Assembly: GCA_003151975.1 (NCBI GenBank)
Contig: PLZD01000067.1
Coordinates: 1,143 to 65,142, forward strand
DNA from: Elusimicrobiota bacterium
GTDB taxonomy: Bacteria > Elusimicrobiota > Elusimicrobia > UBA1565 > UBA9628
Direction of reading: 5' to 3'
DNA length: 64,000 nucleotides
Shown here: in pieces, positions 9,582 through 39,615 of the stretch
How the letters are laid out: every line of letters begins with the position of its first letter
How positions within the stretch are numbered: position 1 is the first letter of the stretch
Translations under genes and position numbers: made by a program
The notes under the pieces: model-generated
Seen by the model: only the letters and a program-made list of their open reading frames with translations
The model's database searches: none
Told to the model about the DNA's origin: nothing

Positions 9582-9582
9582 G

Positions 9583-10236: not shown

Positions 10237-10237
10237 C

Positions 10238-18668: not shown

Positions 18669-20008
18669 TGCCGATCAAGGTCGAGTCGGGAGTCAAAGGC
18701 CGGTTGGATCCGCCCTTTCTATTCGCGGCCGGCGGCCTGCTCGTCATGGGCAGCATCGCCATGCTTTCGGCGGCCAATCCCCTGCCCTACTACGCCCAGA
18801 TCGTGACGCGGCATTCCTTCGCCGTCATTGCGGGCATCGCGGCGCTCGTGCTGGGCTTGAGCTTCAACTACCAAGTCTTCCAGGACCAGGCCAAGGTCGT
18901 CTACGGGCTCATCTTCGCGCTGCTTTCGGCCGTGCTGGTGGCGGGCTCGACGCATAAGGGCCACCGCTCGTGGTTCGACCTGCCCTTCTTCAGCTTTCAG
19001 CCCGCCGAGCTTGCGCGCATCGCGCTCATCCTCGTCACGGCCGCGTTTCTCGACGCGCGCGCGCGCCGCATCCGCGAATTCTCGACGGTCCTGCTGGCCT
19101 TTGGTCTCGCGGCCCCGTGGATGATCCTCATCGTCAAGCAGCCCGATTTCTCCACGATGCTGACCTTCATCCCGATCCTGATCGGCATGCTGTTCTGCGC
19201 GGGCGCCGACATCATCCATTTGCTGGCGCTGATGGGCTATGGGCTTGTGACCGGCATGATGCCGCTCTTATTCACCTACTGTCAGGTCAATTATCCTCAG
19301 CCGACGCCGGGGACTTTGCCTTACCTCATCCTGCAGACCTCCCGCATGGGGACGGCCACGGTCGTCGTCCTTGTCGGCGCGTCCTTGCTCTGCTTGGGTG
19401 CTTGGCGGCTCTCCATCTGGCTGCGCATGCAGGCGCGCTCGGTGTTCTTCATCGCCGTACCAATCATTTTGGCGGCCGGAATGTTGTCTGGCATCGTGAT
19501 CAACAGCCGGCTTAAGAGCTATCAGCGCAACCGCTTCGTGGCTTATGTCGCGCCGCAGGCTGACATCCAGGGCGCGGCCTATCACGTGCATCAAAGCCAG
19601 ATCGCCATTGGCTCGGGCGGACTTCTGGGCAAGGGACTTTTCTCGGGCACGCAGAGCCAGTTGGGCTTTCTGCCCGAGCGTCACACGGACTTCATTTACG
19701 CCGTCGTCGGAGAGGAGATGGGATTTGCGGGGACGACCGTCATCCTCGGGCTGTACCTGCTGCTGATCTGGAGGATCGTGACCATCGCGCGCACCGCGCG
19801 GGACCGCTACGGCTATCTCGTCTGCTGCGGGCTGGCGGTCATGTTCGGCTTCGAATTCGTGCTCAATGTCGGGATGTGCGTCGGCCTGCTGCCCGTGGCC
19901 GGCATTCCGCTGCCGTTGATTTCATACGGAGGATCGAGCCTCGTGATCACCCTGTGGTCGCTTGGCATCGTGGCGAACATCTACTCGCGTCGCTACGCAC
20001 TTTTATAG
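18668..20008 (+). CDS. mrdB: SEDS peptidoglycan glycosyltransferase RodA
   Basis: 446 aa; TAATG overlap with mrdA; 10 TM segments; GSGGLLGKG...PERHTDFI. Confidence 0.9.
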   Translation: MPIKVESGVKGRLDPPFLFAAGGLLVMGSIAMLSAANPLPYYAQIVTRHSFAVIAGIAALVLGLSFNYQVFQDQAKVVYGLIFALLSAVLVAGSTHKGHRSWFDLPFFSFQPAELARIALILVTAAFLDARARRIREFSTVLLAFGLAAPWMILIVKQPDFSTMLTFIPILIGMLFCAGADIIHLLALMGYGLVTGMMPLLFTYCQVNYPQPTPGTLPYLILQTSRMGTATVVVLVGASLLCLGAWRLSIWLRMQARSVFFIAVPIILAAGMLSGIVINSRLKSYQRNRFVAYVAPQADIQGAAYHVHQSQIAIGSGGLLGKGLFSGTQSQLGFLPERHTDFIYAVVGEEMGFAGTTVILGLYLLLIWRIVTIARTARDRYGYLVCCGLAVMFGFEFVLNVGMCVGLLPVAGIPLPLISYGGSSLVITLWSLGIVANIYSRRYALL

Positions 20009-20023
20009 TCACTGGAGAACATC

Positions 20024-22237
20024 ATGTCCAACGAAGAAACTGATTTGAAGCAGCAAGAGCACGCGGCCAAAGAGCACGCGGCCCAAGAGCCGGCGGCGCC
20101 CGCGGCTCAGACTCCGGCGGCTCCCGCCGAGACCGCTCGCGCCGAGGCTCACGCGCCTTCCGAGCCCGAAGTCCGCGAAGCGCCGGCGCCCTCCCGCGAG
20201 GACGAATTTCCGTCGGGGCCCGTCGCGCCCACGGAGGACGTTCCGCAGCCCGCCGATGAGCCGGAGGACGACGAAGAATCCGACGACGACGAGCCGGAAG
20301 CCGAAAACTCGGAGGCCTCCGCCGAGCCCGCCGCTTCGGCTCCCGCATCGCCGGTCCAAGACGGTCCGCCGCAGCAGCCCGGGACTCAGCCTCCGGCGCA
20401 ATCCGGTCAGAATCCAGGCCGTCAAGGACAGCAACCGGGCGGTCAGGGCGAGAAGGGCCGCGACGGCGGAAGGCGCCGACGCCGCGGTCGCGGCGGTCGC
20501 GGCGGCGAGGGCCGCCAGCAGCAAGGAGGACAGGGTGGTCAAAGCCAGCAGGGACAACCGAAAGGTCCCGACCGGAACAGCGGTCGGGGCGAGGGCGGCC
20601 AGCAAGGCGGCGAGCGCCGGGAAGGCGGCCGCTCAGGAGAGCATAAAGGCGAGCGCCGCGATGGGCGCGATGGACAGCATCGCGACCGCACCGGCCAAGG
20701 CCAGCACAAGACCGAGCGTTCGGCGCACCACGACCGCGGCGGCCGCGGCGAGCGCGGAAGCCACGAGCACGTGCACCGCGGCCCGGAGCGCAACCCGAAG
20801 AAGCCCGTCAAGCGCGAGATCCTCGCCAACACGGGCTTTGACGAGAGCCGGATTGCGATCATCGAGGACGGGCGTCTGGCCGAGCTTCTTTGGGAACGGC
20901 ACAGCGAAGCCTCGATCGTCGGCAACATCTACAAGGGCGTCGTCGAAAACGTTTTGCCCGGCATCTCGTCGGCCTTCGTCAACATCGGCTACGAGAAGAA
21001 CGCCTACCTTTACATCTCCGACGTACTCGGCGAGCGCGGAGCGCCCATCGACTCGACGCTCAAAAAGGGCCAGCACATCATGGTGCAGGTCGCCAAAGAG
21101 GCCATCAGCACGAAGGGCATGAAGGTCACGATGGACGTGTCCTTGCCCGGCCGCTACCTGGTCTTTACTCCGTTCCAAAACTACGTCGGGGTCTCCAAGC
21201 ACATCGAAGACGCCGGCGAACGCCAGCGGTTGTCGGGCATCGTCGACAAGCTCGTGGCCGACATCCTGGGCGGCAAGGGCGTGGTCGTGCGCACCGAGGC
21301 CGAGGGCGCCAGCGCCGAGGAGCTCGAGCGCGAGGTCAAGTATCTCCAGCAGACCTGGCAGAACATCCAGAAAAAATTCGAGAGCACGCCGCCGCCGACT
21401 CTGCTGCATAAAGATCTCGACCTCACCTTGCAGGTGGCGCGCGACATCCTCTCGGACCAGACCTATGTCTATCTCATCGACAACAAGGAAGCCTTCAAGA
21501 ACGTGGTCGAATTCATCAAGGGGATCTCTCCCGAGCTCGAGGACAAGGTCCGGTTTTACGAGGCGAAGACGCCGATCTTCAAAGCGTTTGATCTCGACGG
21601 AGTGCTCGAGGACATCCGCAAGACCAAGGTCCCGCTGCCCAACGGCGGCTCGATCATCATCCAAGAAGCCGAGTCGCTCTGCGCCATCGACGTCAACACG
21701 GGGCGCTTCACGGGCTCCAAATCGCAGGAGGAGACCGTCACGCAGACCAACATCGAGGCGGCCACCGAAGTCGCCCAGCAGCTGCGCCTGCGCAACATCG
21801 GCGGCATCATCGTCGTCGACTTTATCGACATGCGCAAGGCCTCCAATCGAAACAAGGTCATGGAAGCCTTCGCCCAGGCCTGCCGCAACGACCGCGCCAA
21901 GATCCGGATCCTGCCCATCACGCGTTTAGGTCTTATCGAGATGACGCGCGAGCGCAAGCGTCAGTCGACGATCAGCCTTTTGACCGACGAGTGCCCCGAG
22001 TGCCGGGGCGCCGGCCGCGTCTTGTCGGCCGAGACGATCCGCATCCGCATCCAGCGCGAGATTTTCGAACTCACGGGCGGCCGCCCGGGCGGCCAAGTGC
22101 GCCTGCTGCTGCACCCGCATTTGGCGGACGTCTTTAGGTCCCAGCAAGCTGTTATTGAAAAGAACGTACAGCGCTCGGTCAAGATCGCCTCGGACCCGCA
22201 AATCCCTTGGGAGGATTACCGCATCATACTCGAATGA
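20024..22237 (+). CDS. rne: ribonuclease E/G family endoribonuclease with ~255 aa N-terminal acidic, Pro and Arg/Gly/Gln-rich disordered extension
   Basis: 737 aa; S1 domain, DNase-I-like AIDVNTG motif, CPECRGAG zinc link; the N-terminal 255 aa are low complexity (PAAP, EDDEESDDDE, RRRRGRGGRGG, QQGG). Confidence 0.88.
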   Translation: MSNEETDLKQQEHAAKEHAAQEPAAPAAQTPAAPAETARAEAHAPSEPEVREAPAPSREDEFPSGPVAPTEDVPQPADEPEDDEESDDDEPEAENSEASAEPAASAPASPVQDGPPQQPGTQPPAQSGQNPGRQGQQPGGQGEKGRDGGRRRRRGRGGRGGEGRQQQGGQGGQSQQGQPKGPDRNSGRGEGGQQGGERREGGRSGEHKGERRDGRDGQHRDRTGQGQHKTERSAHHDRGGRGERGSHEHVHRGPERNPKKPVKREILANTGFDESRIAIIEDGRLAELLWERHSEASIVGNIYKGVVENVLPGISSAFVNIGYEKNAYLYISDVLGERGAPIDSTLKKGQHIMVQVAKEAISTKGMKVTMDVSLPGRYLVFTPFQNYVGVSKHIEDAGERQRLSGIVDKLVADILGGKGVVVRTEAEGASAEELEREVKYLQQTWQNIQKKFESTPPPTLLHKDLDLTLQVARDILSDQTYVYLIDNKEAFKNVVEFIKGISPELEDKVRFYEAKTPIFKAFDLDGVLEDIRKTKVPLPNGGSIIIQEAESLCAIDVNTGRFTGSKSQEETVTQTNIEAATEVAQQLRLRNIGGIIVVDFIDMRKASNRNKVMEAFAQACRNDRAKIRILPITRLGLIEMTRERKRQSTISLLTDECPECRGAGRVLSAETIRIRIQREIFELTGGRPGGQVRLLLHPHLADVFRSQQAVIEKNVQRSVKIASDPQIPWEDYRIILE

Positions 22238-23811
22238 GGATGAGCGCTCTCTTGCTGTCATTGGCGCTGTCGGCTCCGCTCGCCGCGGAGGAGATCGGCG
22301 TCTCCGTCGGGGGGAAAGCCCGCGACGCCGTCGAATCCTACAAGGTGGGCTCGACTTATTACTTGAGCGCCCAACAGGCCGCCGCCATCTACGGCTGCCA
22401 AGTCTACTGGTATCCCGTCTCGGGGCGCCTGCAGATGAGCGCGCGCGGCAAGTCCCTGCAGTTCCTGGTCGGCTCCGACGAGGTTTCGGGTTTAACTGAG
22501 CCCGTGAAGCTCGACGCCGCGGTCATGCTGCGCACGTCGCACGCCTTCATCCCGATGACCTTCTTCCTCTCGGAGGAGTTCTCGGCGTTTGCCGGGGTGG
22601 AGAGCGTCTTCAATGCGCGCACGAAATTCCTGAGCGTCGAGCGCAGAAGCACGGTGGGCTCGGTGCGCTGGTTCTCCTACAACGACGCCACGCGCCTGAC
22701 CGTCGAGCTCGACAAGAGCCTCTCCTACAAAAGCACTTCGCGCGGCGTGGGCGGCGTCGAATTCGTCTTTCCGTTCGGCAGCATCGCGTCCAACGAGAAC
22801 GCCCAGATCGAAGACGGGATCTTGGGCTACTACGCCTTAAACCAGCGCTCCAACGCCGTAGCACTCGCGGTGAAGCTCGAGGATTCCAAGGTCCATTGGC
22901 GCGTCAAGGAGGTCGCCGAGCCGCGGCGTCTCGTGATCGATTTCTATCGCGGCGAGCTTCCATCCTTGCCGGCCGTCGAGACTCATCCCGTCGCCGCGCC
23001 CACCGTCGTAGCACCCGCGCCCAAAAAAGAAGAGGAGGAGGCGCAGTCCGCTCCTGAGACTGCGGCCCCGACTTCCCCGTCCCAGGGTCCGGTGATCGTG
23101 GGGGGAAAGGACGACAAGGTCAGGCGCCGCATCGTCGTCGACGCCGGGCACGGCGGGAAGGACCCGGGCGCGTCGGGCTACCACGGCACCGCGGAGAAGG
23201 ATTTTAACCTGCTCGCGGCCCAGGAACTCGCGAAGCTCCTCGCCCAGGAGAAAACCTTCGAGGTCATGCTGACCCGCAACGACGACACTTTCGTGCCGCT
23301 GGCCGACCGCTCGCGGCTGGCCAACGAGTTCGGCGCCGACCTGTTCATCTCCCTGCACTGCAACGCGTCCAGAAAACGCCAGGATGAGGGTTTCGAAGTG
23401 TACTTTCAGAGCGAGACGTCCTCCGACCCCGAGGCGCAGAAGGTCGCCGACCTCGAGAACTCCTCCATCGAACTCGAGGGCAAGACGACCCAAGACGCGC
23501 AGGCGGAGATGATCCTCGGAGAGCTCTCCAAAACGGAGTTCATCAACGCCTCCTCCGAATGGGCGGCCTTGCTCGCGCGCGACATCGGCAAGCGCGTCGA
23601 CGTGGAAAACCACGGCGTCAAGCAGGCGGGCTTCTACGTGCTGCGCGGCACGCACGCGCCCGCGGTGCTCTTCGAGATGGCCTACATCACGAACAAGTCC
23701 GACGAGGCCAAACTTGAGTCCAAGAAAATCCGGCGCAAGATCGTCGACGGCGTCTACGCGGGGATACTCGATTACGCCAAGCGCGAGGGTTGGATGGCGA
23801 GGCCAGACTAA
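22234..23811 (+). CDS. N-acetylmuramoyl-L-alanine amidase (AmiC-like) with AMIN domain
   Basis: Signal peptide MRMSALLLSLALSAPLAA; amidase_3 core RIVVDAGHGGKDPGA...ISLHCNA...E. Confidence 0.88.
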   Translation: MRMSALLLSLALSAPLAAEEIGVSVGGKARDAVESYKVGSTYYLSAQQAAAIYGCQVYWYPVSGRLQMSARGKSLQFLVGSDEVSGLTEPVKLDAAVMLRTSHAFIPMTFFLSEEFSAFAGVESVFNARTKFLSVERRSTVGSVRWFSYNDATRLTVELDKSLSYKSTSRGVGGVEFVFPFGSIASNENAQIEDGILGYYALNQRSNAVALAVKLEDSKVHWRVKEVAEPRRLVIDFYRGELPSLPAVETHPVAAPTVVAPAPKKEEEEAQSAPETAAPTSPSQGPVIVGGKDDKVRRRIVVDAGHGGKDPGASGYHGTAEKDFNLLAAQELAKLLAQEKTFEVMLTRNDDTFVPLADRSRLANEFGADLFISLHCNASRKRQDEGFEVYFQSETSSDPEAQKVADLENSSIELEGKTTQDAQAEMILGELSKTEFINASSEWAALLARDIGKRVDVENHGVKQAGFYVLRGTHAPAVLFEMAYITNKSDEAKLESKKIRRKIVDGVYAGILDYAKREGWMARPD

Positions 23812-23812
23812 A

Positions 23813-24616
23813 ATGAAGAAAAGCCAACGCCCTATCGGCGTTTTCGACTCCGGCATCGGGGGCTTGACCGTACTCTCGGCGCTGGCGCGCCGCATGCCCA
23901 ACGAGCACCTGATTTATTTCGGAGACACGGCGCACGTTCCTTACGGTTCAAAATCCAAGGAGGCCGTGACGCGATTCTCGCTGGCCATCGCGCGCTTCTT
24001 GGAATCCAAGGGCATCAAGCTGCTCGTCGTGGCCTGCAACACCTCATCGGCCCTGGCCTTGCGCGAATTGAAGAGCGCGTTGAAAATCCCGGTTTTGGGC
24101 GTCATCGAGCCCGGCGCGCGCGCGGCGGCCGCCGCGACGCGCAACGGGAGAGTCGCGGTCATCGGCACCGAGGCGACCGTCCGCTCCGGCGCTTATGTCG
24201 CCGCGCTCAAGAAGAAGCGCCCCGGCATCCACGCGAAGGCACTGGCCTGCCCGCTCTTCGTGCCGCTTGTGGAGGAGGGTTGGTGGGGCCATCGCGTGAC
24301 CTCGGAGGTCGCCAAGGATTACCTCAAGCCCTTGCGCGGTTCGGGGATCGACGCGCTGATCCTTGGCTGCACGCATTACCCGCTTTTGAAGAAGACGATC
24401 TCCAGGGTCGTGGGCCCTAAAGTTCGGCTCATTGATTCGGCCGAGCAGACGGCCGTCGAGACCGAGGAACTGCTCGACGAGATGGGGCTCAAGCGCCGCG
24501 GCGGTCCCGGGAGACGCGAGTTCTACGCCTCGGACGCTCCGAAGCGCTTCTTGAGGATCGCCCGTCTGTTGGGCGTGAAGGCAAAATCGGTCAAGCTGCA
24601 CCCATTTGACGCATGA
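23813..24616 (+). CDS. murI: glutamate racemase
   Basis: ATG at 23813 (MKKSQRPIGVFDSGIGGLTVL...); VACNTSS and GCTHYP catalytic Cys motifs; the track ORF from 23714 includes an upstream read-through. Confidence 0.92.
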   Translation: MKKSQRPIGVFDSGIGGLTVLSALARRMPNEHLIYFGDTAHVPYGSKSKEAVTRFSLAIARFLESKGIKLLVVACNTSSALALRELKSALKIPVLGVIEPGARAAAAATRNGRVAVIGTEATVRSGAYVAALKKKRPGIHAKALACPLFVPLVEEGWWGHRVTSEVAKDYLKPLRGSGIDALILGCTHYPLLKKTISRVVGPKVRLIDSAEQTAVETEELLDEMGLKRRGGPGRREFYASDAPKRFLRIARLLGVKAKSVKLHPFDA

Positions 24617-25197
24617 AAGAATACGCGAAGCTCGTAGGTCTTGCGAAATCCGCCGTCGACAACGGCTTCTCGCGCGTGGGCAAGTCGCTCGACAAGGGCA
24701 GCCCCGTCGACGAGGCGCTGATGCTGCTGTCGGCGCGCGCCGTCGCGGTCGGCAACGCGATCGTCGTGCTGGCGCAAGAGTCGCTGTCCAACGAAGCCTT
24801 GCCGCTCTTGCGCTCGCTCTTTGAACTTGCGGCCGCTATGCGCTGGCTCGTCGCGGAGGACCGCGAGAAGCGCGCGCGGGAAGTGCTCGCCGAGGCGCGC
24901 GCCTCCGATTGGGAGATGCTGTGGAAGACTTCCCGACTCAAAGAGCGGCTGCCGCTGCTTGAGTTGGCCGACGGCGACGCGCGGCGCGCGCTTGGGTTAT
25001 GCGTGGATTTCATGTGCGCCAACACGCAAGGCCTGCCGTGGGGGCACGTTTTTGAAGGGAACAAGGAGACCGGAGTAACGTCGGCCGAGCTCTTGAGGCT
25101 CGCGGCGATCGCCTCCGGTCATGTGGTCAAAGCTTTGGACGCGCGGTGGCCAGGGAAGTTCGAGGGCGCCGAACAACTGTGGGAGAAGGCAAAATGA
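24613..25197 (+). CDS. hypothetical cytoplasmic helical protein, translationally coupled between murI and rho
   Basis: 194 aa; ATGA overlap with the murI stop and ATGATGA overlap with the rho start; no family recognised. Confidence 0.55.
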   Translation: MKEYAKLVGLAKSAVDNGFSRVGKSLDKGSPVDEALMLLSARAVAVGNAIVVLAQESLSNEALPLLRSLFELAAAMRWLVAEDREKRAREVLAEARASDWEMLWKTSRLKERLPLLELADGDARRALGLCVDFMCANTQGLPWGHVFEGNKETGVTSAELLRLAAIASGHVVKALDARWPGKFEGAEQLWEKAK

Positions 25198-26342
25198 TGA
25201 GCGACGACAGAAGGGGCGGGCAAGGCGGTCAGGGCGGCGGAGGCGGCGGCCAGGGCGGGCAAGGCGGCGGATCCGGTGGATCCGGCGGGTCCGGCGGGTC
25301 CGGCCAGCATCACAACCGCGGCGGGCGCAACCGTCACCGGCACCACCGCGGCGGCCAAGGCGGCGGCCAGCAAGGCGGCGGCCAGCAGGGCGGCGGCCAG
25401 CACTTCAATCGCCCTCCCCAGCACAACCAGGGCAACCGCAGCAATCCCTCGCCCGCGCGCGCCTCGTCCAACGTCGTCAGCGACATCGAACGCGCCTACA
25501 ACGCCAAGACCCCGATCGATCCCAAGGAGTGGATCCAGCTGGAAAAAGGCAGCACGGAAATCTCGATGCGCGCCATGGACCTGCTCTGCCCGATCGGCCG
25601 CGGCACGCGCGGCCTCATCGTCGCGCCCCCAAAGGCCGGCAAAACGACCTTCCTCAAGCAGATCTCGAACGCCGTCCACGGCTTCGACCCGAAGATCAAG
25701 CAGTACTGCCTGCTCATCGACGAGCGCCCCGAGGAGGTCACGGATTTTAAGCGTTCGGTGCCCGCCGAGGTCTTCGCCTCCTCCTCCGACCAGAGCTACG
25801 AGAAGCACATCACGGTCGCCAACGAGCTCATCAAGCTCGCCGTCGAGCAGGCCAGCACCGGGCAGGACGTGTTCATACTGCTGGATTCCCTGACGCGGTT
25901 GGCCCGCGTGCACAACCAGTTCGCCACGGGCAATCGCACGATGACCGGCGGCTTGGATTCGCGCGCGATGGAAGTTCCGCGCCGATTTTTTGGCGCCGCG
26001 CGCAAGCTCGAGGAGGGAGGGTCTCTCACCATCTTGGCGACCATACTCGTCGACACCGGCTCGCGCATGGACGAGGTCATCTTCCAGGAGTTCAAGGGCA
26101 CTGGCAACATGGAACTCGTGCTCTCGCGTCAGGCCGCCGACATGCGCATCTTTCCGGCGATGAAGGTGCGCGAGTCGGGCACGCGCAAGGAAGAAAAGCT
26201 CCTGCCGCCCGCGATCATCGAGGGCGTCTGGAAGCTGCGCCGGGCTCTGGCCGACAAGGGCGACATCGACGCGTTGAAGTCCCTCGTCGAGGCCCTGCGC
26301 GTGCACAAGACCAACCACGCCTTCCTCGCGGCTCTCAAGTAA
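25194..26342 (+). CDS. rho: transcription termination factor Rho, atypical: N-terminal OB-fold RNA-binding domain replaced by ~100 aa Gly/Gln/Arg/His-rich low-complexity region
   Basis: 382 aa; GGAGAAGG SD; ATPase core PIGRGTRGLIVAPPKAGKT, Q- and R-loop regions, C-terminus KTNHAFLAALK; the region N-terminal to IDPKEW is low complexity (GGQGGQGGGGGGQ, RGGRNRHRHHRGG). Confidence 0.85.
   Translation: MMSDDRRGGQGGQGGGGGGQGGQGGGSGGSGGSGGSGQHHNRGGRNRHRHHRGGQGGGQQGGGQQGGGQHFNRPPQHNQGNRSNPSPARASSNVVSDIERAYNAKTPIDPKEWIQLEKGSTEISMRAMDLLCPIGRGTRGLIVAPPKAGKTTFLKQISNAVHGFDPKIKQYCLLIDERPEEVTDFKRSVPAEVFASSSDQSYEKHITVANELIKLAVEQASTGQDVFILLDSLTRLARVHNQFATGNRTMTGGLDSRAMEVPRRFFGAARKLEEGGSLTILATILVDTGSRMDEVIFQEFKGTGNMELVLSRQAADMRIFPAMKVRESGTRKEEKLLPPAIIEGVWKLRRALADKGDIDALKSLVEALRVHKTNHAFLAALK
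25269..25305 (+). repeat. GGATCCGGN-type 9-nt microsatellite encoding (GSG)n in the Rho N-terminal tail
   Basis: ggatccggtggatccggcgggtccggcgggtccggc. Confidence 0.8.
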
Positions 26343-26719
26343 TGAAGAAGGCGATCGCGACTCAGAACGCGCCGCAGGCGATCGGGCCTTACTCGCAGGC
26401 CATCGAGTCCGGCGGCTTTGTGTTCGCGTCTGGGCAGATTCCGCTCGATGCTTCAGGAAAGATGGTGGAAGGCGGGGTGCGCGAGCAGACCGAGCGGGTC
26501 CTGTGCAACCTCGCCGCGATCCTGGCGCAAGCGGGATTGGGCCTGGAGCACGTCGTCAAGACGACCGTCTTCATGACAAACCTAGGTGAGTTCGCCGCGA
26601 TGAACGAGGTCTACGCGAAGCATTTTGCGGCGCCGCATCCAGCGCGAGCGACCGTGCAGGTGGCGGCGCTTCCCAAAGGCGCCGCCGTCGAGATCGAGGC
26701 GGTCGCCTCCAGAGCGTGA
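26342..26719 (+). CDS. ridA: RidA/YjgF family reactive enamine/imine deaminase
   Basis: 125 aa; AIGPYSQA...ATVQVAALPKGA.VEIE. Confidence 0.88.
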   Translation: MKKAIATQNAPQAIGPYSQAIESGGFVFASGQIPLDASGKMVEGGVREQTERVLCNLAAILAQAGLGLEHVVKTTVFMTNLGEFAAMNEVYAKHFAAPHPARATVQVAALPKGAAVEIEAVASRA

Positions 26720-27813
26720 TCCCAATGAAAAGAATCGCTTGTCTGCTCGTCTTGCTGGGCGCGGTCGGACCACTGCGCGCCGAAGAGCCGAAGAAGGCCT
26801 TTATTTTCGTGGTTTCCGCGGGCGCCGGATCGCAGATTTTTCCGCCGAGCGAACTGGAACGCCGGCGTGACGCGGAAAAGAATTACTACGAGGCGCAAGG
26901 CTACAAGGTCGAGGTCGCGCCCGCCACGCAGGACGCTGTGTTCGACGCGATCGCCTCCGGTGCTTCCGCGATTTCGTATCTCGGCCCCGCGGCAGAAGGC
27001 GCCCTCGAGCCGACGTTGTTGGGCCTCAACGCCCGCGTTTGGAAGGGTGCGGCCGCAGTTTATTATTCGATGAAGCACGCCGACGTGCCTAAGAACCTCG
27101 GCCTGCAAGTCCTGCGTAATTTCTCGTGTCGCAGTCTCTGGGACAACAACCTCGCGGAGCTTTTCGTGCGGCCCGGCGGCCATTACTTCGGGGCCAAGAG
27201 CGACCTCGCCCACGATCCTTCCTACGAGAAGCTGGCGGGTGTCGTCGAAGGCTGCACGCAAGGCGGCGACTGCCGCTGCGCGACCGTGGGTCTATACTCG
27301 GCCGGCGATCTCAGGGATTACGAACTGCCTCGCCGCAAAGCGGAAACCGCGGCCGTTGCTTCCGCGGCGCCGTCTGTCCCCGTGATGCCGGCCGCGCTCG
27401 CGCCCGCAGCACTGCCGGCGGTGGCAGTACCGCAGGCGGCGGTGCCGCAGGCGGCGGTGCCGCAGGCGGCATCGCCGGCGCTGCCGCCGGGCCCGCTGTC
27501 GGGGACTTGGTACATTTCGCCCACCGGCACCATCGTGATCGACCAGCGCGGCGAGCAGGTCAGCTGGGTGCTGACGGTTCCCGACCGCAGCGTGCGCCAC
27601 GAGGGCCACGGCACTTTTTCCAACTCGATGCTCAACGGCGCCTTTGAGGACGCCGAGGACCCCACCGGCCTGCGCGCCGGCGAGTTCAAGGGTTTCCAGC
27701 TGACCTCCGAGGGCAAGCTTTGCGGCCAGGTGCGCTGGTGGAACAAGATTGATGCGGCGCGCGGCTCAGGGATGGGTTTCGACTGTTACTCGCGGCAGCC
27801 GCTTAAGAAGTAA
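26716..27813 (+). CDS. secreted hypothetical protein with internal (AVPQA)3 repeat
   Basis: 365 aa; signal peptide MIPMKRIACLLVLLGAVGPLRA; no family recognised. Confidence 0.6.
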   Translation: MIPMKRIACLLVLLGAVGPLRAEEPKKAFIFVVSAGAGSQIFPPSELERRRDAEKNYYEAQGYKVEVAPATQDAVFDAIASGASAISYLGPAAEGALEPTLLGLNARVWKGAAAVYYSMKHADVPKNLGLQVLRNFSCRSLWDNNLAELFVRPGGHYFGAKSDLAHDPSYEKLAGVVEGCTQGGDCRCATVGLYSAGDLRDYELPRRKAETAAVASAAPSVPVMPAALAPAALPAVAVPQAAVPQAAVPQAASPALPPGPLSGTWYISPTGTIVIDQRGEQVSWVLTVPDRSVRHEGHGTFSNSMLNGAFEDAEDPTGLRAGEFKGFQLTSEGKLCGQVRWWNKIDAARGSGMGFDCYSRQPLKK

Positions 27814-28852
27814 GCTCGGGGAGTTCGAAAAAGAAGGCTGTTCCTTTTCCCGTCGTAAATCCTATGCGCCCGCCGTGTCGCTCGACGATGGCCTTCGAAA
27901 TCGCCAAGCCCAGGCCGGAGCCGCCCTTCTTGTGGCCTTCGGCCTGCGCGAACCGTCCGAAAATCTTATCGCGAAAGGTCTCCGGTATGCCGGGACCGTC
28001 GTCGCGGATGCTCACGCGAAGTGACGCGGCGTCGCGCTCGATGCTCGCGCGTACCACGCCGCCCTCGGGTGAGAACTTGACGGCATTCGAGAGCAGATTG
28101 GTCAACACCTGGCGCAGGCGGTCGGGGTCGCCCATGACCTTGGCGCCGGGAAGTCCGGCCCTCATTTCGAGGGTGACGCCGGTCTTGGCGCCCAGCCCGC
28201 GCGCCGATTCGAGAATGGACTCCGTCAACGCCGAGAGCTCGAGCGGCTCGAGCTTGAGCGGCGCGGCCCCCGAGGTCAGCTTTTCGATGCTGAGATAATC
28301 GTTTATGAGATCCAGCATGAACTGGCTGTTGCGCATGGCCATGCCCAGCATCTTCTCCGCCGTGTCGGGGTGGCGGCGGGCCAGCTCAAGCGAGCCGATG
28401 ATCGCGGTCAGCGGCGAGCGGAGCTCGTGGGTGGCGAGTGCTATGAGCTCGTCCTTCATGGCCTCGACCTTGCGCCGCTCGGTCACGTCGCGGAAGACCG
28501 CGCGTACGTACTCGGCTTTGCCCGCGTCGTCGAAGCGGTAGTTGATGAAGCCCTCGACCTGGAACTCTGTCCCATTCTTGGAAACGAAGATGCGCTGAAT
28601 CTCGCGCAAGGTCTCTCCCGCGGCCAGCTTCGCCTCGTTTTCCGCGACCAGCACCCGCTGGTCGGGGTGCAGGACGTCGTGGGCGTTCATGCTGTTGATC
28701 TCGTCCTGTGAGTAGCCCAGCTTCTCGCGCCAGGCGCGGTTGACGTAAAGGATGCGGCCCCCGGGCGTGGCGAGGATGACGAGGTCGTCGATGTTCTCGA
28801 GCAAGTCCTCGAGGCGCTGGGTCTCCGCGGCGGGAAGTTGGGCGAGCGTCAT
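27803..28852 (-). CDS. cytoplasmic PAS-domain sensor histidine kinase (orphan), divergent from the megaprotein gene
   Basis: 349 aa; PAS (ILYVNRAW...); HisKA H-box ATHELRSPL; HATPase N, G1 and G2 boxes (NLLSNAVKF, DDGPGI, GSGLGL). Confidence 0.88.
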   Translation of the reverse strand: MTLAQLPAAETQRLEDLLENIDDLVILATPGGRILYVNRAWREKLGYSQDEINSMNAHDVLHPDQRVLVAENEAKLAAGETLREIQRIFVSKNGTEFQVEGFINYRFDDAGKAEYVRAVFRDVTERRKVEAMKDELIALATHELRSPLTAIIGSLELARRHPDTAEKMLGMAMRNSQFMLDLINDYLSIEKLTSGAAPLKLEPLELSALTESILESARGLGAKTGVTLEMRAGLPGAKVMGDPDRLRQVLTNLLSNAVKFSPEGGVVRASIERDAASLRVSIRDDGPGIPETFRDKIFGRFAQAEGHKKGGSGLGLAISKAIVERHGGRIGFTTGKGTAFFFELPELTS

Positions 28853-28884
28853 AGCTTATCTCATTGAAGCTCTACGGGCGGGAA

Positions 28885-28916
28885 TTGTCAATAAGGCGCG
28901 CCCCTTCCTTTAATAT
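28885..28916 (+). promoter_or_regulatory. candidate sigma70-like promoter for the megaprotein gene (TTGTCA, 18 nt spacer, TTTAAT) in the divergent intergenic region
   Basis: -35-like hexamer at 28885-28890 and -10-like hexamer at 28909-28914; the only AT-rich patch in the 156 bp divergent region. Confidence 0.3.
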
Positions 28917-29029
28917 GGCGCCAAAGCAACGCTGCGTCCTTTGACCCAAGCGAAGTTAGGCCCATTAACCGCTTCGTTTGGCCCAAAGGGCCCGAGCCCC
29001 GGGTCCATTTGCAGTGCAATAATGGGTCT

Positions 29030-32000
29030 ATGTTGCGGCGCTTCATTGCTACCGTTGTCTGCGCGGCCCTTATCGTGGCCTGCCCCGGCATCGAGTCATA
29101 CCACGCGATAGCCGGCGAGCTCGGCGAGATCAATGTTGGCGCGCGGCGCGCGCCCGCCCTTCCCGCTCTGCCGACCGCGATCCTGCCCGGCATCGCCAAC
29201 ATCACCCAGCTCTCGCAGACGCCGGGAAATCTAGCCACGGTCACCGAGGTCGCAACAGTTCATTCCGCGATCGCGACGCCTGGCGCGGCCGCTGCAAACA
29301 CTTCTTCGATCTCGAACGCCTCGGCGGTTGCTCAGCCTGAGACGGCGGAGGTTGAAAATGCGGGAAAACTGATCACACCGGAGGTCTTGGCGGGACTCAA
29401 CGCCACGACTAAGGGCGTCTCGGAAGCCGTCGAGGCCCTCGCCAAGCCCGATCTGAGCGCCGAGGGCGCGCACGCCGTCGGCGTCCGCCTCGAAGGCGCG
29501 GTTTCGCCTGCGGTCTCCGCCGAAGAGATTTCTCCCGCGGCCTCGGGCTTCTCAAATTTCTCGGGTAATGTTCATGCCAAGCAGAAGCGCGGCCTCGTCC
29601 AGTCCGTCGGCTTCTTTGCGAAAGCCAAGGGCTTCGTCCGCACAATTTCGGTCGCCGCGGTTCTGACGATCGCAACACTCGGCGGCCCCGTGCTGGCCCA
29701 GACCGTTCCGCAGGGCCCGGCGCCGGCCGGCCAGCAGCAGCAGGTTCCAGCTCCCGCCCAGCCCGGCGCGCCCGTGCTCGGCGCGCCTCAAGACACGGTC
29801 CAGGCCGAGGAGCCCGCGCCCAAGCAAATCGGACCCATCTCGGCGACCATCGCGATCCAAGGCCAGAACATGACGGTCGGCGATCGCTTCCACATCGCGC
29901 TCACGCTGACCAACAGCTCGGATAAGCCGGTCACGATCGCCAATCTGCGGAACTCGCTCAACGACGCCCTGCCCACGGACGTCGAGCTGCAGATGAACTC
30001 AGGGTCGGACGCCGTCACGCTAAAGCCCGGCGAGACGCAGACGGTCGTCTTCGAGACCATCGCGTTTGCCTCGGGCGACATCGCGATGGGCGGCCCGCTG
30101 ATTTTCAACGCGCAGCTCAATGGCCAGGCCGCCGAGATGCAGGCCATACTCGCCGACGGCGCGATCACGGTCAAGTCGGTCCTCACGCCCGATTGGAAGA
30201 AGATCGGCTTCAAGGATATCTACAGCGTCCTGCGCCAGGACGTGCCGCTCTGGGCGTGGCTGGCGGCGATCCCGCTGCTGCTGTCGCTGCTCGTCGCCGG
30301 CGAGCGCGTGCTCGCGGCCCAGCGCCGCGGCGCCAAGGTCCTCTCGGTGGGCCAGCCGCTGCTGGTCTCGACGCGCGCGCGCATGAAAGCGCTCGAAGGC
30401 GCCTTGGAGCAAAACGACGCGGCGTTCTACGCCGAGTACTACTCCATACTCTCGACTTTCCTGATCGACTCGCACGGCTTGTCCGTCAAGGAGCGCGACG
30501 CCAAGACCTTGATCTCGGACCTCAAGAAGGCTAAGAAGCTTTCCTCGGGCCAGCTTAAGGTCGCCTCAGATTTAGCGTTCTCAGCGGAAGCCGCGCGGTT
30601 CGGCGGCCGCGCTACGACGGCCGAGCAGCGCTCCGCCGACCTCGCGGCTCTGTCGTCTCTCGTGGACAACATCGCGGGTGCTTCGAAGACGCAGAAAACC
30701 GAAGGCCTACACAGCCTCGGCGGGCCGATGACGGGCCTGCAGTTCGGCAACCCCTACGCGCTGCTGCTCTTTTTGCCGCTGGCTGGGTATCTGGCTTGGA
30801 AGTTCATAGGCCGCAAGCAGGCCAGCGCCCAAGCCGCTTACCCGCTCTCGACGCTTTCCTCGGTCTCGCCGCGCAAGAGTTTCCGCCAGCGCTTCGGTTG
30901 GCTGACGAAGGGCCTTCGCGCCGCCGCCGTTTCCTTAATTCTGCTCGGCATCGCCGATCCCCAACTCGGCGTGCGCCGCCAGGAGACCATCACGCCGTCG
31001 ACCGACACTGAGCTCATCATCGACGTGTCGGGTTCGATGGACGAAGCCTTCAACGGTTCCGGCAGCCCCAGCAAGCTGGTGGCCGCCGAGGAGGCGATGA
31101 AGGCCTACATCAACGAGCAGCGGCGCGGCACGCAGAACCGCGTGGGCTTGGTCACTTTCTCGGACGAGTCTTACGTCGACATCCACCTCACTCAGGACTA
31201 CGACGCGCTGATCGCGCACTTGAAGGAGCTGCATACGATTTCTTCGACGGCGATCGGCAAGGGCATACTGACCGCGACGGGCCAGTTCCTCGAGGCCAAC
31301 GCCTACGAGCTGACCTCGCAGGACGACCCGCGCATCATCGAGGTTCAGCGCCTCATCCGCACCGAAGGCCTCGGCGCCGCTCTCGAGTATGCCAAGCCCT
31401 ACCCGGACCTCATGGACAAGATCGTCCGGCCCGACCGCAAGAAGGTCATCGTCCTTTTCACGGACGGCGAGTCCAACACTGGCCTTGAGCCCATCCCGGC
31501 CTCCGAGATCGCGGCGAAACTTGGCGTGCGCATCTACACGGTCGGCATCGCTCCCAAGGGCGGCACGGGCGTGGGCTACGATGAGAACACGCTGGTCACG
31601 GTGGCCAAGAACACCGGCGCGCAGTTCTTCCGGGCCGATGACGCCGACCGCATGCGCGAGATCCTGCTCGAAATCAATCGCCTCGAGAAGAGCCCGACCA
31701 AGATCGTGTCGGCCGTATCGGTCCAGAGCTACCAGCAATGGTTCATCATGCTGGCGCTGCTGGCGCTGGGCTTGGAGCTTGGCCTGGCCAACACGAGATT
31801 GCGCGTGCTGTCGGGCTTCTTGATGTTCACTTTGCCGTTCGGCAGCGTCGTCAATTTCAACCCGGCGCAGCAGCCTGCCGCGATCGTGCAGACCGTCGAC
31901 GCCCAGGCCCCGGCCGCGGAATCCGCTTTGCCGACCACCGGCGTGCCCGCCGAGGTCGCCGCGGCCAATCTGCTCTTCAACTCGGGCCGGTATGACGAAG

Positions 32001-35000
32001 CGCTCAAGGCCTACGCCAAGGCGCTCGAGAAGTATCCCGACATGGCCGAGCTCTACTACAACATGGGCAACGCCTACTTGAAGCTGGGCGACGTCGACCG
32101 CGCCAAGATCAGCTACGGCAAGTTTTTGAGCCTCAAACCCGACGCGAAGCTGGCTTCGAAGGCGATCTACAACATGGGCAACGCCGCGCTTTCCGCCAAG
32201 GACGTCGAAGGCGCTGTCGACAATTATAAGGAAGCCCTGCGCCGCGATCCGAACAACGACCGCGCCAAGTGGAACCTTGAGGTCATTAAGGCGCTCCAGA
32301 AAGAGCAGCAGCAGCAGCAATCCCAGCAGCAGCAGAAACAGCAGCAGAAGGAAGGCAAGCAGAAGCAGAACGGCAAGCAAAAGCAGAAAGGCGACCAGAA
32401 GGGCGATCAAAAGGGCGACCAGAAGGGCGATCAGAAAGGCGACCAGAAGGGAGACCAAAAGGGCGATCAGCAGGGCAAGCCCGGCGACCAGAAAGGCGAC
32501 GCCCAAGCCAAGCCCGGCGACAAAGAGAAGAGCGGCGCCGACCAGTTGACCGACAAACTCGGCGACCAGGAAAAGAAGGAAGGCGAGGCCGCGCGCAAGG
32601 CCATCCCGCGTAAGGGCGACAAGGTTTGGGGCCTCCTCGGACTGCCGCTGGCGGCCGGCGGCTCAACCGCCTTGGCTTTCGGCTCAGCCTGGATGCTCTG
32701 GGCGCTGGCTTTCGGCCTGCCCGTCGTCGCCGGCCTCATCGCCTACGGCATCCACAAGAAGATTCAAGCCGCCAAGCAGCTGACTCCGGGCACGGCGCCC
32801 GCGGGTTTTGCTTCCTGGTGGGGACGCAACGCTTTCCTGCGCAAGTCGGCGCTGATGATCACGGCGGCAGCCCTCCTTGGCCTGTCAGCGGCCAACCCGA
32901 AGAGCGGCTACAAGGACGAGCGCCTCAACTTCGGCGGCAAGGACATCGAGGTGGTGCTCGATAACTCGCTCTCCATGCTCTACGCCGAGGACGGCCGCGC
33001 CGACCGCACCCGCAAGGAGCTCACCGATTTCATCACGCACATGCAGGGCACCGACCGCATCGGCCTGGTGGTCTTCGCGGGCTCAGCAAGGACCGCGGCG
33101 CCCATCTCAATGGACTACGGCAATTTCGAGTACAAGCTGCAGAGGTTGGAAGTCGAGTCGCGCGGACTTAAATCCGGCTCGGACCTAGCCGCGGCGGTGC
33201 AGTTTGCCGCCAAGTCCTTCGAGGACGTCAAGCAGCTCGAGGGCCGCCAAAGGATCGTCATCATCATCTCCGACGGCGACATTTTCAACGAGGAACTCGA
33301 GGGCGCCGTAAAATCAGCGCAAGAGCACCACATCACGGTCTACACGATCGGCGTGGGCACGCCGGCCGGCTCCAAGATCAAGGTCCCGACCGAGGACGGC
33401 AAGGGCACCGAGTACGTCATCGACGAGAAGACCGGCCAGCCGGCCGTCACGACACTCGTCGAGGAGCCCCTGCGCCAGATCGCCTCGCGCACCGGCGGCG
33501 CCTACTTCCGCGCAGGCTCAGATTCCTCGATGAACCGCATTCTCGAGCAGATTTCGACGCTGCAGAAAGGCGAGAAGGGCGACACGATCAAGTCCCCGCG
33601 CGGCGTGGCGTCATGGTTCTTGTGGCCGACCATGCTCTTGCTGCTGCTCGAGATGCTGCTGCCGAGCAAGTCGGTGCTCAAGGACGACCGCAAAGAGAAA
33701 GCGCGCGGCGTAGCGGTTCTCGGCTTGGCCTCCTTGCCTTTGTCGGGTTATGCTCTGATGCTGCCTTTCGCCGTGCTCACGACCGTCGCCGTGGGCTTGC
33801 TTGCCGCCGACTATTGGAGCGGCGGAGCGATCCGGCGCAAGATCGCCTGGGAGCTCGAGCGCCGCCGCAAGCTCGTGGAAAACGGCGTCTTGACCGACGC
33901 CGCGGGCTTGTTCGATCTGCGCGAGACCGACGCCCCGAAGCTGTCGGCCTTCCTCAAGTCTTGGAGCGAGGCCGATGAGGCTGGAAAGAAAATCTTGTCC
34001 AACGAGGCGGTCTTAGACGAACAGCTGTGGCGCCAGAAGCTCGCCGCGGCCTTCGTCTACGGCAGCGCGCCGGAGACGCAGGAAGCGCTGCTCACGATGA
34101 TGGCGCGCACCGCGCAGAAGCGCCTCGAGCCGATGGCTCCGGTCGCCGAGCAGTTGCTCGCGCGGCGCGGCCGCCTGCCCTGGCTCGACCATGTCGACGC
34201 GGCGCGGCGCCTCGCGCGCCTCGCGCAGGCCTTCCTCGATAATTCGAAGCCTGAGAATCACGCCGCTTTGGTTTCGCTGCTCTCTCACCCCGACGCCGAG
34301 GTCCAGCAGGCCGCGCGCCAGGCGTTAGGCAGCGAAGTCCCGGCGCCGGCCCTCAAACGCGGGTTTTTCTTCAACTGGCGCAAATGGCTCTCGGTCGCCC
34401 TCTCGACTCTGATGCTCGCGTCCTCCATGACTTGGGCGGGCTTCTCCGGCTACAAGACGACGCAATTCTTCGAGGAGTCGGCCAAGGCGCGGGACTTCTC
34501 GATGCGGACCTTCTACCGCGAGGACATGTTCGTCTTCTCGGACCACTACGCCGACGACCGCATCACGACCGACGTCCTGCCGGCTCTCAAGGCGTGGCAA
34601 GAGAACCCGCAGTCCGCGGGCGCGGGCCTCGAGCGCGCACTGACGGTTCTCTCGCAGTCCCCCGATCCCAAGGCCGACAACGTGCTCGAAGTTATCCTTA
34701 AGCACGGCGACATCCTGCCGCTCACGCCGAAGGCGGAGTATATGCTGCTCCACACCCTCGTCATCCGCGACAACGACGACGTCTGGCGCTTCATGGAGGA
34801 CCACCTCCAGAAGAGCGCGCGCAACCCGCGCGCCGTCATCCTGATGGAGAAGATGATCGCCATAGGTGCTGCCGAGGGCAACGAGAAGGTTTTCCAGAAC
34901 ATCTTCCATTTCCTGAAGAGCCCCAGCGAGCAGATTCAGCAGGTGGCCACGGCCGCGATCGCGGCGTCGCTGTCGGCGCCCGACAAGGTGGCCAAGATCT

Positions 35001-38098: not shown

Positions 38099-39615
38099 AC
38101 CGAGGTAACGCCATGAAGACGACGCTCTCGCAAATGATGAAGACTGCGGCCTTGCTGGGCCTGTTCGCCCTGCTCTGTCCCCGCGCGGCGCACGCTGTTG
38201 ATTTCGCCGAGCGCTCCGCGGTGACGCCCGGCGTCCAGCTCAAGCTTGTGACGCTCGACCCGAAGATCGGCGCGCTCGGCAAGCCCGGCGACGGCATCAG
38301 CATCGACCCCCTCGCGGCCCAGCTTCACAATGTCCTGACCGCGGCCGGCCTCTTGACCGAGGCCCCCGGCCAGATCGCGATCCTCACGATCCCTCAGCCC
38401 TTGGCGACGATTTCCAACGGCCCTAAAGCCGCCAACGACGTCGGGACTCCGGCGGAGGCCTCGCAGGCGCGTCTTGCCGAGATCACTAAGACGGTTGTGG
38501 ATATGCCCGACATCTCGAAGGCCGAAGGCACGGATGCCTCCGGCGCTGGACGCACGCTCTCCGACGCCGTCACCGGAGAGAAGACGGTCCACGCCGGCGC
38601 CGTCGAGGCCGAGGCGACGCCGACGGCTCCCGCTAAGCCGCTCAAGCAGCAAATCACCGAGGGCAAAGCCGTCGTCGACGGCATCCGCTCCGAAGTCAGC
38701 AAGGTCATCGTCGGCCAGAATGAAATGATCAACTCGATCATCATGACGATGATCGCGCGCCAGCACGTTCTGCTCGAAGGTCTGCCCGGCGTCGGCAAAA
38801 CCGAAACCGCCAAGGCCTTCGCCGACGCGATCGACGGCTCGTTCCAGCGCGTGCAGGGCACTTCCGACAAGCTGCCCTCCGACATCCTCGGCACCGAGGT
38901 CCTTCAAGAGGACCCGGCCACCGGCAAGAAGTTCTGGGAGCTCTCTAAGGGCCCCATCTTCACGAACATCCTGCTCGCCGACGAAATCAACCGCATGCCG
39001 CCCAAGGCCCAGGCGTCCTTGCTCGAAGCCATGGCCGAAGGCCGCGTGACCATCGGCCGCCAGACGGTCGACCTGCAGCGCTTCACGGTGCTCGCCACGC
39101 AAAACCCCGTCGAGCAGGACGGCACCTACCGCCTGCCCGAGGCGCAGCTCGACCGCTTCATGTTCAAGGTGCTCGTGCCTCAGCCGAGCGCGTCGGATTT
39201 GAAGGTCATCATGGAGCGCAACCGGTCGAAGGAGAACCGCCCGAAAGCGTCCAAGGTCACGAACTTGGCGCAGTTGGACGACATCCGGCGCACCGCCGAG
39301 CAGATCCCGATGGACGCTCAGATCGAGGACTACATCATCAAGATCGTCATGGCCGCCAAGGAGCACGCCGATCTCAAGGATAGTGTGGAATACAGCGTCT
39401 ACACGCGCGCGGCGATCTTCATGGCGCAGGCCGCCCGCATCCACGCCTTGATGGAAGGGCGCGATTGGGTGAGCCCCGCGGATGTGCGCGCGGTAGCACC
39501 CCTCGTCATGCGGCACCGCATCGTGCTCAACTACCAGGCCGCCGGCACGACGTCCGACCAGGTCATCACGAAGATTCTCGACTTGGTCGCTCCGCCGAAG
39601 GTCGCGGCCAAGTAA
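38095..39615 (+). CDS. MoxR-family AAA+ ATPase (AAA_3) with N-terminal signal-anchor and ~190 aa Ala/Pro/Thr-rich extension
   Basis: 506 aa; ATGA overlap with the megaprotein stop; Walker [10 protein letters not shown], Walker B LLADEINR, sensor ATQNP; N-terminal hydrophobic segment [20 protein letters not shown]. Confidence 0.88.

Follow-up and report, generated by a model that had tools for sequence, protein, structure and literature searches.

The 64-kb window analyzed here (positions 1,143 to 65,142 of contig PLZD01000067.1, assembly GCA_003151975.1, 63.6% G+C) comes from an Elusimicrobiota bacterium and carries on its plus strand a rho gene whose predicted product lacks both N-terminal domains of Rho, the transcription termination factor, namely the Rho_N helix bundle and the OB fold that forms the primary RNA-binding site. 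The gene occupies 25194..26342, stop codon included, and runs from an ATG at 25194 to a TAA at 26340-26342, encoding 382 amino acids (aa). A longer open reading frame (ORF) with a GTG start at 25146 is also present; we took ATG 25194 as the start because homologous proteins begin at that position, with N-termini of the form MNEE, MNDD or MMNEE, and because the codon overlaps the stop of the DUF5677 gene lying 5' of rho (AAATGATGA). An initial annotation of this stretch had given the same coordinates, and we retain them. From its N-terminus the protein consists of a disordered tail (residues 1-92, 25194..25469), a connector (residues 93-124, 25470..25565), a RecA-type ATPase core (residues 125-328, 25566..26177) and a C-terminal helical region (residues 329-382, 26178..26339). 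Some gene callers place the start of homologues at an internal Met, giving products of ~280 aa. In the window gene, no in-frame ATG, GTG or TTG occurs between M2 and M125, and a start at M125 would delete the conserved connector, which does not vary within the clade. It follows that the tail has to be translated.

The initial annotation had read this protein as a Rho with a low-complexity tail in place of the N-terminal helix bundle and OB domain, a reading upheld by profile searches, a six-frame search, an AlphaFold2 model and more than 200 homologues. At E ≤ 1 the only Pfam domain in the protein is PF00006 (generic ATP-synt_ab), covering residues 125-328, and there is no match to Rho_N (PF07498), Rho_RNA_bind (PF07497), CSD or S1; the first 130 residues, which the annotation had singled out for a check against Rho_RNA_bind and CSD, are likewise blank. 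With the NCBIfam Rho equivalog model NF006886 the protein reaches 371.9 bits (cut-off 315), with residues 100-380 aligned to model positions 131-412 of 413. TIGR00767 reaches 351 bits, under its cut-off of 509, as expected because the N-terminal third of that model finds no counterpart. Rho chains in the PDB match at E-values of 7e-85 to 8e-77, in alignments that start at query residue ~101-104, equivalent to E. coli ~135, and the by-eye placement on E. coli Rho offered in the annotation is thus right to within a few residues. The top 50 Foldseek matches are all Rho, and the folded part of the model covers the C-terminal ~280-290 residues or columns of these chains alone.

The OB was also sought with a jackhmmer profile seeded with E. 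coli Rho residues 48-130. The profile matches 54 of 58 outgroup Rho ORFs, full-length OB folds scoring 1e-27 to 1e-36 and three partial matches being weaker. It finds nothing in the stop-to-stop ORFs of the window or of the related genome loci L001-L022, and no OB emerges either from a six-frame search of the complete window and these loci, made with filters off. Run over every fetched locus, the six-frame search does recover frameshifted OB folds in L024 and L064. In these planctomycete metagenome-assembled genomes (MAGs) the Rho OB lies just upstream of the ATPase in another frame (L024 ~9679-10867; L064 ~9225-10846), the split reading frames being either assembly frameshifts or pseudogenes. 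No OB occurs within ±10 kb of rho in 22 related loci. With L024 and L064 as positive controls, the negative six-frame result rules out a frameshift or lost exon as the origin of the OB-less gene. The 585 bp 5' of rho (24613-25197) encode a conserved DUF5677 protein rather than a frameshifted OB, and no OB could be recovered by a shift of frame from 24600-25200, the interval in which the annotation had suggested that one might be hidden. A jackhmmer search from E. coli residues 1-48 for the Rho_N bundle gave no match, but the outgroups were blank as well, and Pfam searches of selected sequences were used instead. On the combined weight of profiles and model, we consider the helix bundle and the OB primary RNA-binding domain to be truly absent from this Rho.

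The remainder of the protein was described in the initial annotation as complete, and this is borne out by the catalytic and channel residues, all of which are conserved. The connector corresponds to E. coli Rho ~120-155, and order in the protein begins with it; AlphaFold2 places a helix at residues 97-104, and E99, D109, P110 and W113 are invariant in the clade. The ATPase core, delimited by Pfam and by alignment to E. coli Rho, holds the Walker A motif (APPKAGKT, nucleotides 25623-25646), the catalytic Glu and Arg valve (DERPEEV), Walker B (LLDS), the Q-loop (25917-25958), the R-loop (26055-26075) and the Arg finger R318, and the C-terminal region aligns to E. coli 367-416 and is modeled as helices. 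Across 230 OB-less homologues compared with E. coli Rho by alignment, no variation occurs at the positions that match K184, T185, E211, R212, S266, R269, G287, T323, E334, G337, R347, R353 and R366. The D265 equivalent in Walker B is Asp in 229 of the 230; in the Q-loop, the K283 equivalent is Arg in every sequence and the T286 equivalent is Thr or Ser; and in the R-loop, the residue that matches K326 is Arg or Lys except in a single homologue, which has Gln. Judged by its sequence, the window Rho keeps all the parts of a ring-shaped, ATP-driven 5'-to-3' RNA translocase, namely the connector, Walker A and B, catalytic Glu, Arg valve, Arg finger, and Q- and R-loops; the residues relevant to a homohexameric ring with RNA-dependent ATPase, helicase and termination activity are thus conserved.

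The rate of change in this part of the protein points the same way. Between the window and L001 the Rho C-terminal domain is 95% identical, versus 61-84% for RodA, PBP2, MurI, RNase G, AmiC, RidA and the DUF5677 protein, making Rho the most conserved protein of its gene block. Identity of the same domain is 49% to E. coli Rho and 55% to the canonical Rho of Thermus thermophilus. Nothing here indicates relaxed evolution, since the latter value is as high as that to any other Rho. These figures describe an intact and strongly constrained motor, as would be expected of an active enzyme rather than a decaying copy.

In the place of the missing domains lies the tail. AlphaFold2, given a 32-sequence alignment, assigns residues 1-92 a predicted local distance difference test score (pLDDT) below 50 and no secondary structure. 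The tail opens with an acidic tip (MMSDD), continues through GGQ/GGS repeats, a basic cluster and further GGGQQ repeats, and closes with a Pro/Asn/Ser-rich end; residues 1-100 of the protein are 36% Gly, 13% Gln, 11% Arg, 10% Ser, 7% His and 7% Asn. The basic cluster, HHNRGGRNRHRHHR (residues 39-52, 25308..25349, plus strand), is the counterpart of an RRRRRRHRGG block found in most homologues. In the densest run of 12 residues, the window Rho has eight Arg, Lys or His, and its homologues have a median of 8 basic residues (range 5-11). Tandem Repeats Finder marks imperfect 9-, 15-, 21- and 30-nucleotide tandem repeats at 25214..25402, built of GGC GGN CAR units that code for the Gly/Gln tracts, and these are a likely substrate for changes of tail length through replication slippage.

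Among 121 sequences, the window protein and 120 close homologues, the tail is present, in frame and 35-117 aa long in 105; the shorter sequences are mostly gene calls from an internal Met. Sequence and length drift fast across the 105 tails, whereas bulk properties are steady. Net charge stays between +5 and +10 (median +8; window +8), Arg makes up ~12% of residues, Lys ~0%, hydrophobic residues ~4% and acidic residues ~3%, the last at the extreme N-terminus, and a dense Arg/His cluster is always present. With charge, Arg use and cluster held despite the drift in sequence, the tail is evidently under selection. The window tail contains three RGG/GGR motifs, and its composition, disorder and charge fit the class of Arg-rich disordered RNA-binding segments, which suggests that it may bind RNA. 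Self-condensation of the FUS kind is argued against by the near absence of aromatic residues.

The OB-less architecture is clade-wide and not peculiar to this genome. A search of a 5.8-billion-protein collection returned as its 120 best matches proteins of 280-408 aa that all have PF00006 as their sole Pfam domain; where names are given, they read 'transcription termination factor Rho' and belong to Elusimicrobia or Elusimicrobiota MAGs. Of the loci in GTDB species-representative genomes, the nearest 21 (L001-L021) all lack the OB, 19 of them labeled Elusimicrobia or Elusimicrobiota and two (L019 and L020) 'uncultured bacterium'. An orthologue with 70% identity (P0110) sits in the same gene context on the closed 3,802,950-bp chromosome CP096137.1 (GCA_023213235.1) of an uncultivated freshwater Elusimicrobiota of GTDB order UBA1565 (SILVA Lineage IV; 68.6% G+C), obtained from an amoeba enrichment culture of Lake Zurich. 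A second search, seeded with L020 from the deepest OB-less branch, gave 120 best matches that are again all PF00006-only (260-376 aa), some of them labeled Candidatus Omnitrophica, Elusimicrobiota or, in one case, Verrucomicrobiae. Many of these matches carry a short Arg/His/Asn-rich tail only, and many others essentially none. Tail-poor OB-less rho loci include L082 (10001-10927) and L084 (10001-10978). In L082 and L083, a gene for a 66-aa cold-shock-domain protein lies 2.3 kb downstream of rho.

Against 1.84 billion representatives clustered at 50% identity, the OB-less clade is reduced to three or four representatives with 60-84% identity, after which the values level off at 47-56%. Twenty-one of the top 150 representatives have no OB match, and several of these have Arg-rich tails. 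Outside Elusimicrobiota, OB-less Rho occurs in a cluster with a Hydrogenedentes-labeled member (P0257/P0405), with Arg-rich tails, and in bare form in the Sericytochromatia-labeled P0360. Some OB-less Rho proteins outside the phylum have very long Lys/Ala/Pro-rich and poly-Arg disordered regions. In a neighbor-joining tree of C-terminal domains, calculated without bootstrap support, L001-L021 form one clade with the OB-less L022 and the Eisenbacteria locus L078 as its sister, while the OB-less Thermoanaerobaculia protein L051 nests among OB-bearing Acidobacteriota. The tree suggests that the OB was lost more than once, with L051 an independent case.

The rho gene belongs to a gene cluster, mreC-mreD-PBP2-rodA-rng-amiC-murI-DUF5677-rho-ridA, whose order is common to many Elusimicrobiota loci, including that of the closed genome CP096137.1. 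From PBP2 to ridA (window 19500-29000) the genes are tightly packed, with several overlapping stop/start pairs, and intrinsic-terminator-like hairpins in this interval number 10 versus 9.1 expected from shuffles, which is no enrichment. The DUF5677 gene on the 5' side (24613..25197, plus strand; PF18928, E = 7.7e-9) has its stop in overlap with the rho start. It is kept upstream of rho in L001-L008, L012, L014, L015 and L081, and is missing in L021 and in deeper OB-less lineages; in L006, L007, L012, L014 and L015, an insert of ~2 kb separates it from rho, with a large ORF (>650 aa) in L006 and L014. The DUF5677 protein is thus not a general, obligatory partner of this Rho, being absent from some lineages and sometimes split off by the insert. 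On the 3' side lies ridA, of the L-PSP family (26342..26719, plus strand; PF01042, E = 1.5e-42), whose ATG overlaps the rho stop (TAATG) and which follows rho in most Elusimicrobiota loci. The RidA/L-PSP genes noted beside rho elsewhere include those of L081 (11197-11598) and L085 (11031-11501), and among these cases is a YjgF/L-PSP gene that adjoins an unrelated OB-less rho, in divergent orientation, on a 4.4-Mb metagenomic contig. The pairing of RidA/L-PSP genes with rho may be a recurrent linkage or a coincidence.

The same conserved cluster contains the RNase E/G gene (20024..22237, plus strand; PF10150 at residues 373-644, E = 2e-96), which encodes an N-terminal disordered arm of ~255 aa (20024-20788). 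The initial annotation had noted that this arm, which it took to lie immediately upstream, shares the composition of the Rho tail. That likeness holds for the second half of the arm, a Gly/Gln/Arg block with a poly-R/GRGG motif, and not for its first ~110 aa, which are acidic and Pro/Ala-rich; the net charge of the whole arm is -15 versus +7 to +8 for the Rho tail, and the gene is three genes upstream of rho rather than adjacent. The motif (R)6-7GRGGRG recurs in the RNase E/G arms of four orthologues (L002, L003, L004 and L021). Among window ORFs of at least 150 aa, Rho and RNase E/G alone have Gly/Gln-rich tracts, which are therefore not a general compositional feature of the proteome within the window. 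The poly-Arg likeness of the two proteins hints at a shared RNA-binding or co-localization module. Farther downstream, at 29009-39615, lie a 3029-aa ORF with TPR, VWA and DUF58 domains and, after it, a gene for a MoxR-type AAA ATPase; the pair resembles a Bat/MoxR-VWA-type system in giant, fused form.

Canonical Rho, as in E. coli (Type 1; NF006886/TIGR00767), shares with the window protein the connector, RecA core, Q- and R-loops, Arg finger and C-terminal helices; the difference lies in PF07498 and PF07497, for which the window Rho has a 92-aa basic disordered tail. In the survey of Moreira et al. 2024 (PMC11347177), a 'functional Rho' comprises an RNA-binding domain and an ATPase, and Types 1-4 all keep the OB, in agreement with the statement in the initial annotation that known Rho variants retain it. 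The window Rho, having no RNA-binding domain, falls outside that definition. It would by definition fit the 'Rho-like' sequences with a single domain, since one Rho domain is found in it; these form a supplementary category of the same survey, outside 'functional Rho', in a dataset of RefSeq complete genomes, and Elusimicrobiota are not named in its main text (PMC11347177). The N-terminus is likewise shortened or remodeled in 'Group B'/Type 4, in Type 2d and in the NF041509 family (Rho, short form; paralog_Rho2), but in all of these the loss is confined to the Rho_N helix bundle, whereas the window Rho has lost the OB too. Some planctomycete members of these groups share with the window clade a disordered region in which poly-Arg is flanked by Gly. 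Against NF041509 the window protein scores 304.4 bits, under a cut-off of 628, over model positions 79-360 of 360. Specific kinship to Group B finds no support in the C-terminal domain, which stands just as far (50-55%) from Group B-like Rho as from canonical Rho, and the genome scan is biased by query-derived patterns, so that no derivation from Group B can be claimed.

Disordered segments of similar composition are known from Rho proteins that retain the OB. The M. tuberculosis NID is, like the window tail, Arg/Gly-rich and disordered, comes from a GC-rich genome and serves RNA recruitment; this insertion is needed for almost all Rut-site selection, with 1759 sites chosen in its presence and 47 without it (PMC13650167). 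Rho of Bacteroides thetaiotaomicron forms condensates driven by a disordered region, as cited in PMC12360218. These two segments and the prion-like domain of C. botulinum Rho stand next to an intact OB, whereas the window tail stands alone upstream of the connector. Planctomycete Rho proteins from L031 and L054 (Planctomycetaceae/Gimesia) combine a disordered region of ~250 aa, containing GG(R)8-10GGGG, with an intact OB downstream and no Rho_N, and the Thermoanaerobaculia protein, which is OB-less, has this Gly-flanked poly-Arg motif too. Rho without an OB goes unmentioned in a 2025 review of Rho mechanisms, and full-text literature searches on such proteins, or on Rho in Elusimicrobia, brought up no relevant description. 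In E. coli RNase E, the AR-RBD and AR2 segments are short Arg-dense blocks inside the disordered scaffold of an RNA-processing enzyme, and the window RNase E/G has a block of this kind; the likeness to the Rho tail is functional only, the enzyme and the position being different. On sequence grounds, the window protein is a Rho motor that lacks two defining features of the canonical architecture and fits none of the published 'functional' types.

The explanation that we favor, and hold to be somewhat probable, is that this is a genuine, selectively maintained rho gene that has lost both N-terminal domains in the Elusimicrobiota order UBA1565 and its relatives, and that its disordered tail acts as an RNA-capture arm replacing the primary site. 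Six tails of about +8 each would give a hexamer a flexible cationic collar of about +48. In each tail, the central Arg/His cluster flanked by flexible Gly/Gln spacers would allow electrostatic capture of RNA with low specificity, gathering naked nascent RNA at the ring's mouth and passing it to the secondary site formed by the Q- and R-loops. The tail would thus take over from the primary binding site, in a manner comparable to M. tuberculosis Rho, where the Arg/Gly-rich insertion has the leading part in recruiting substrate. Targets would then be chosen mainly by the accessibility of RNA, that is, by its being untranslated and unstructured, and possibly by contacts with NusG or RNA polymerase, rather than by C-rich sequence. 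The ancestor may have been a protein of the planctomycete type, with a basic disordered region, an OB and an ATPase, from which the OB was later lost.

Several observations weigh against this explanation. Many of the L020-seeded matches (within P0121-P0240), Omnitrophica-labeled ones included, are ~308-310 aa long and have essentially no tail, beginning with 'MR' and then the connector. Such relatives imply that the motor can persist with no substitute for the primary site, and the tail may accordingly be an accessory; because they exist, our confidence in the tail as a loader is moderate. The OB-less match labeled Verrucomicrobiae belongs to a group that normally has OB-bearing Rho. In addition, among the sequences of a published alignment is a Rho from groundwater Elusimicrobia that has an OB position equivalent to R109 (PNAS 2024, PMC11441560), and an OB-bearing Rho therefore exists somewhere in the phylum. 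When we looked for such an OB-bearing Elusimicrobiota Rho, no sequence with His at the R109-equivalent position was present among the 150 nearest 50%-identity representatives, and the one informative label on the nearest OB-bearing representatives was Acidobacteriota.

A broader proposal, which we put forward tentatively, is that the OB-less protein is the sole Rho in Elusimicrobiota, Omnitrophota, some Hydrogenedentes, Sericytochromatia and other lineages, which would carry out termination without a primary site or the reading of rut sequences. The poly-Arg/Gly module of the UBA1565 type would in that case bring Rho and RNase E/G to one RNA-rich condensate, coupling termination and decay.

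The opposite possibility, to which we give a little less credence still, is that a canonical OB-bearing Rho is encoded elsewhere in these genomes and that the OB-less copy is an accessory paralogue, either specialized (for the remodeling of R-loops or RNA-protein complexes, or as a degradosome helicase) or incorporated into mixed hexamers in which its partner supplies the primary site. There are precedents, since PVC bacteria and Actinomycetota are known to have a second rho without the N-terminal domain ('Group B'), for which the formation of hetero-hexamers has been suggested (PMC11347177). The closest pattern-matched outgroup Rho proteins tested are of the Rho_N-less type, and both the groundwater Elusimicrobia OB and the Verrucomicrobiae label speak for this possibility. 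However, no Elusimicrobiota assembly has a second rho match among the 80 best genome loci, neither the window nor the ±10-kb surroundings in the 22 loci hold an OB, and the NF041509 score of the window protein is lower than that of the main Rho model. The C-terminal domain is also the most conserved of a housekeeping block and as near to Thermus Rho as to any Rho. Accessory gene copies usually diverge faster.

It is less likely again that the protein is the sole Rho and its tail is not a loader, RNA entering the ring directly or by way of RNA polymerase and NusG while the tail serves in condensates or co-localization with RNase E/G, in pH sensing through its seven His, or in autoregulation. 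The tail-less OB-less Rho of ~310 aa common in related lineages would fit such a role, as would the high variability of the tail in sequence and length, the poly-R/GRGG motif that it shares with the RNase E/G arm and the disorder-driven condensates described for B. thetaiotaomicron Rho, as cited in PMC12360218. The tightly held positive charge, supplied exclusively by Arg, is instead what is expected of a nucleic-acid-binding segment, the tail has none of the aromatic 'stickers' typical of self-associating prion-like domains, and the M. tuberculosis insertion of similar composition works in RNA recruitment (PMC13650167).

That the gene is an artefact or pseudogene, be it a truncated or frameshifted rho, an untranslated leader or another RecA-family ATPase (FliI, type III secretion or F1), is exceedingly improbable: some homologues are indeed called from an internal Met at ~280 aa and the outgroup loci L024 and L064 do hold a frameshifted rho, but a closed long-read genome and over 200 independent sequences share the same architecture, the DNA 5' of rho codes for the conserved DUF5677 protein, no start codon lies between M2 and an M125 whose use would remove the connector, and FliI and type III secretion ATPase models reach at best 73.5 bits against cut-offs of ~380-750.

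The OB-fold primary site is how textbook Rho picks its targets: it reads C-rich (YC-dinucleotide), unstructured RNA, and closure of the ring is coupled to whether the site is occupied. Here we describe a large and conserved Rho clade in which the motor appears intact and the primary site is missing, some members having a basic disordered tail in its place and some having nothing. If these proteins are the sole Rho of their hosts, the primary site would be dispensable for Rho function in nature, and targets would be picked by electrostatics, by RNA accessibility, by tethering to NusG or RNA polymerase, or through condensates. They would also provide a natural minimal system for the old question of what each RNA site contributes, and surveys that demand an RNA-binding domain of a 'functional' Rho would record too few Rho proteins in candidate phyla. 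The OB-less proteins also offer compact Rho motors to structural biology and engineering. Should they instead prove to be paralogues, they would constitute a new class of Rho-derived translocases.

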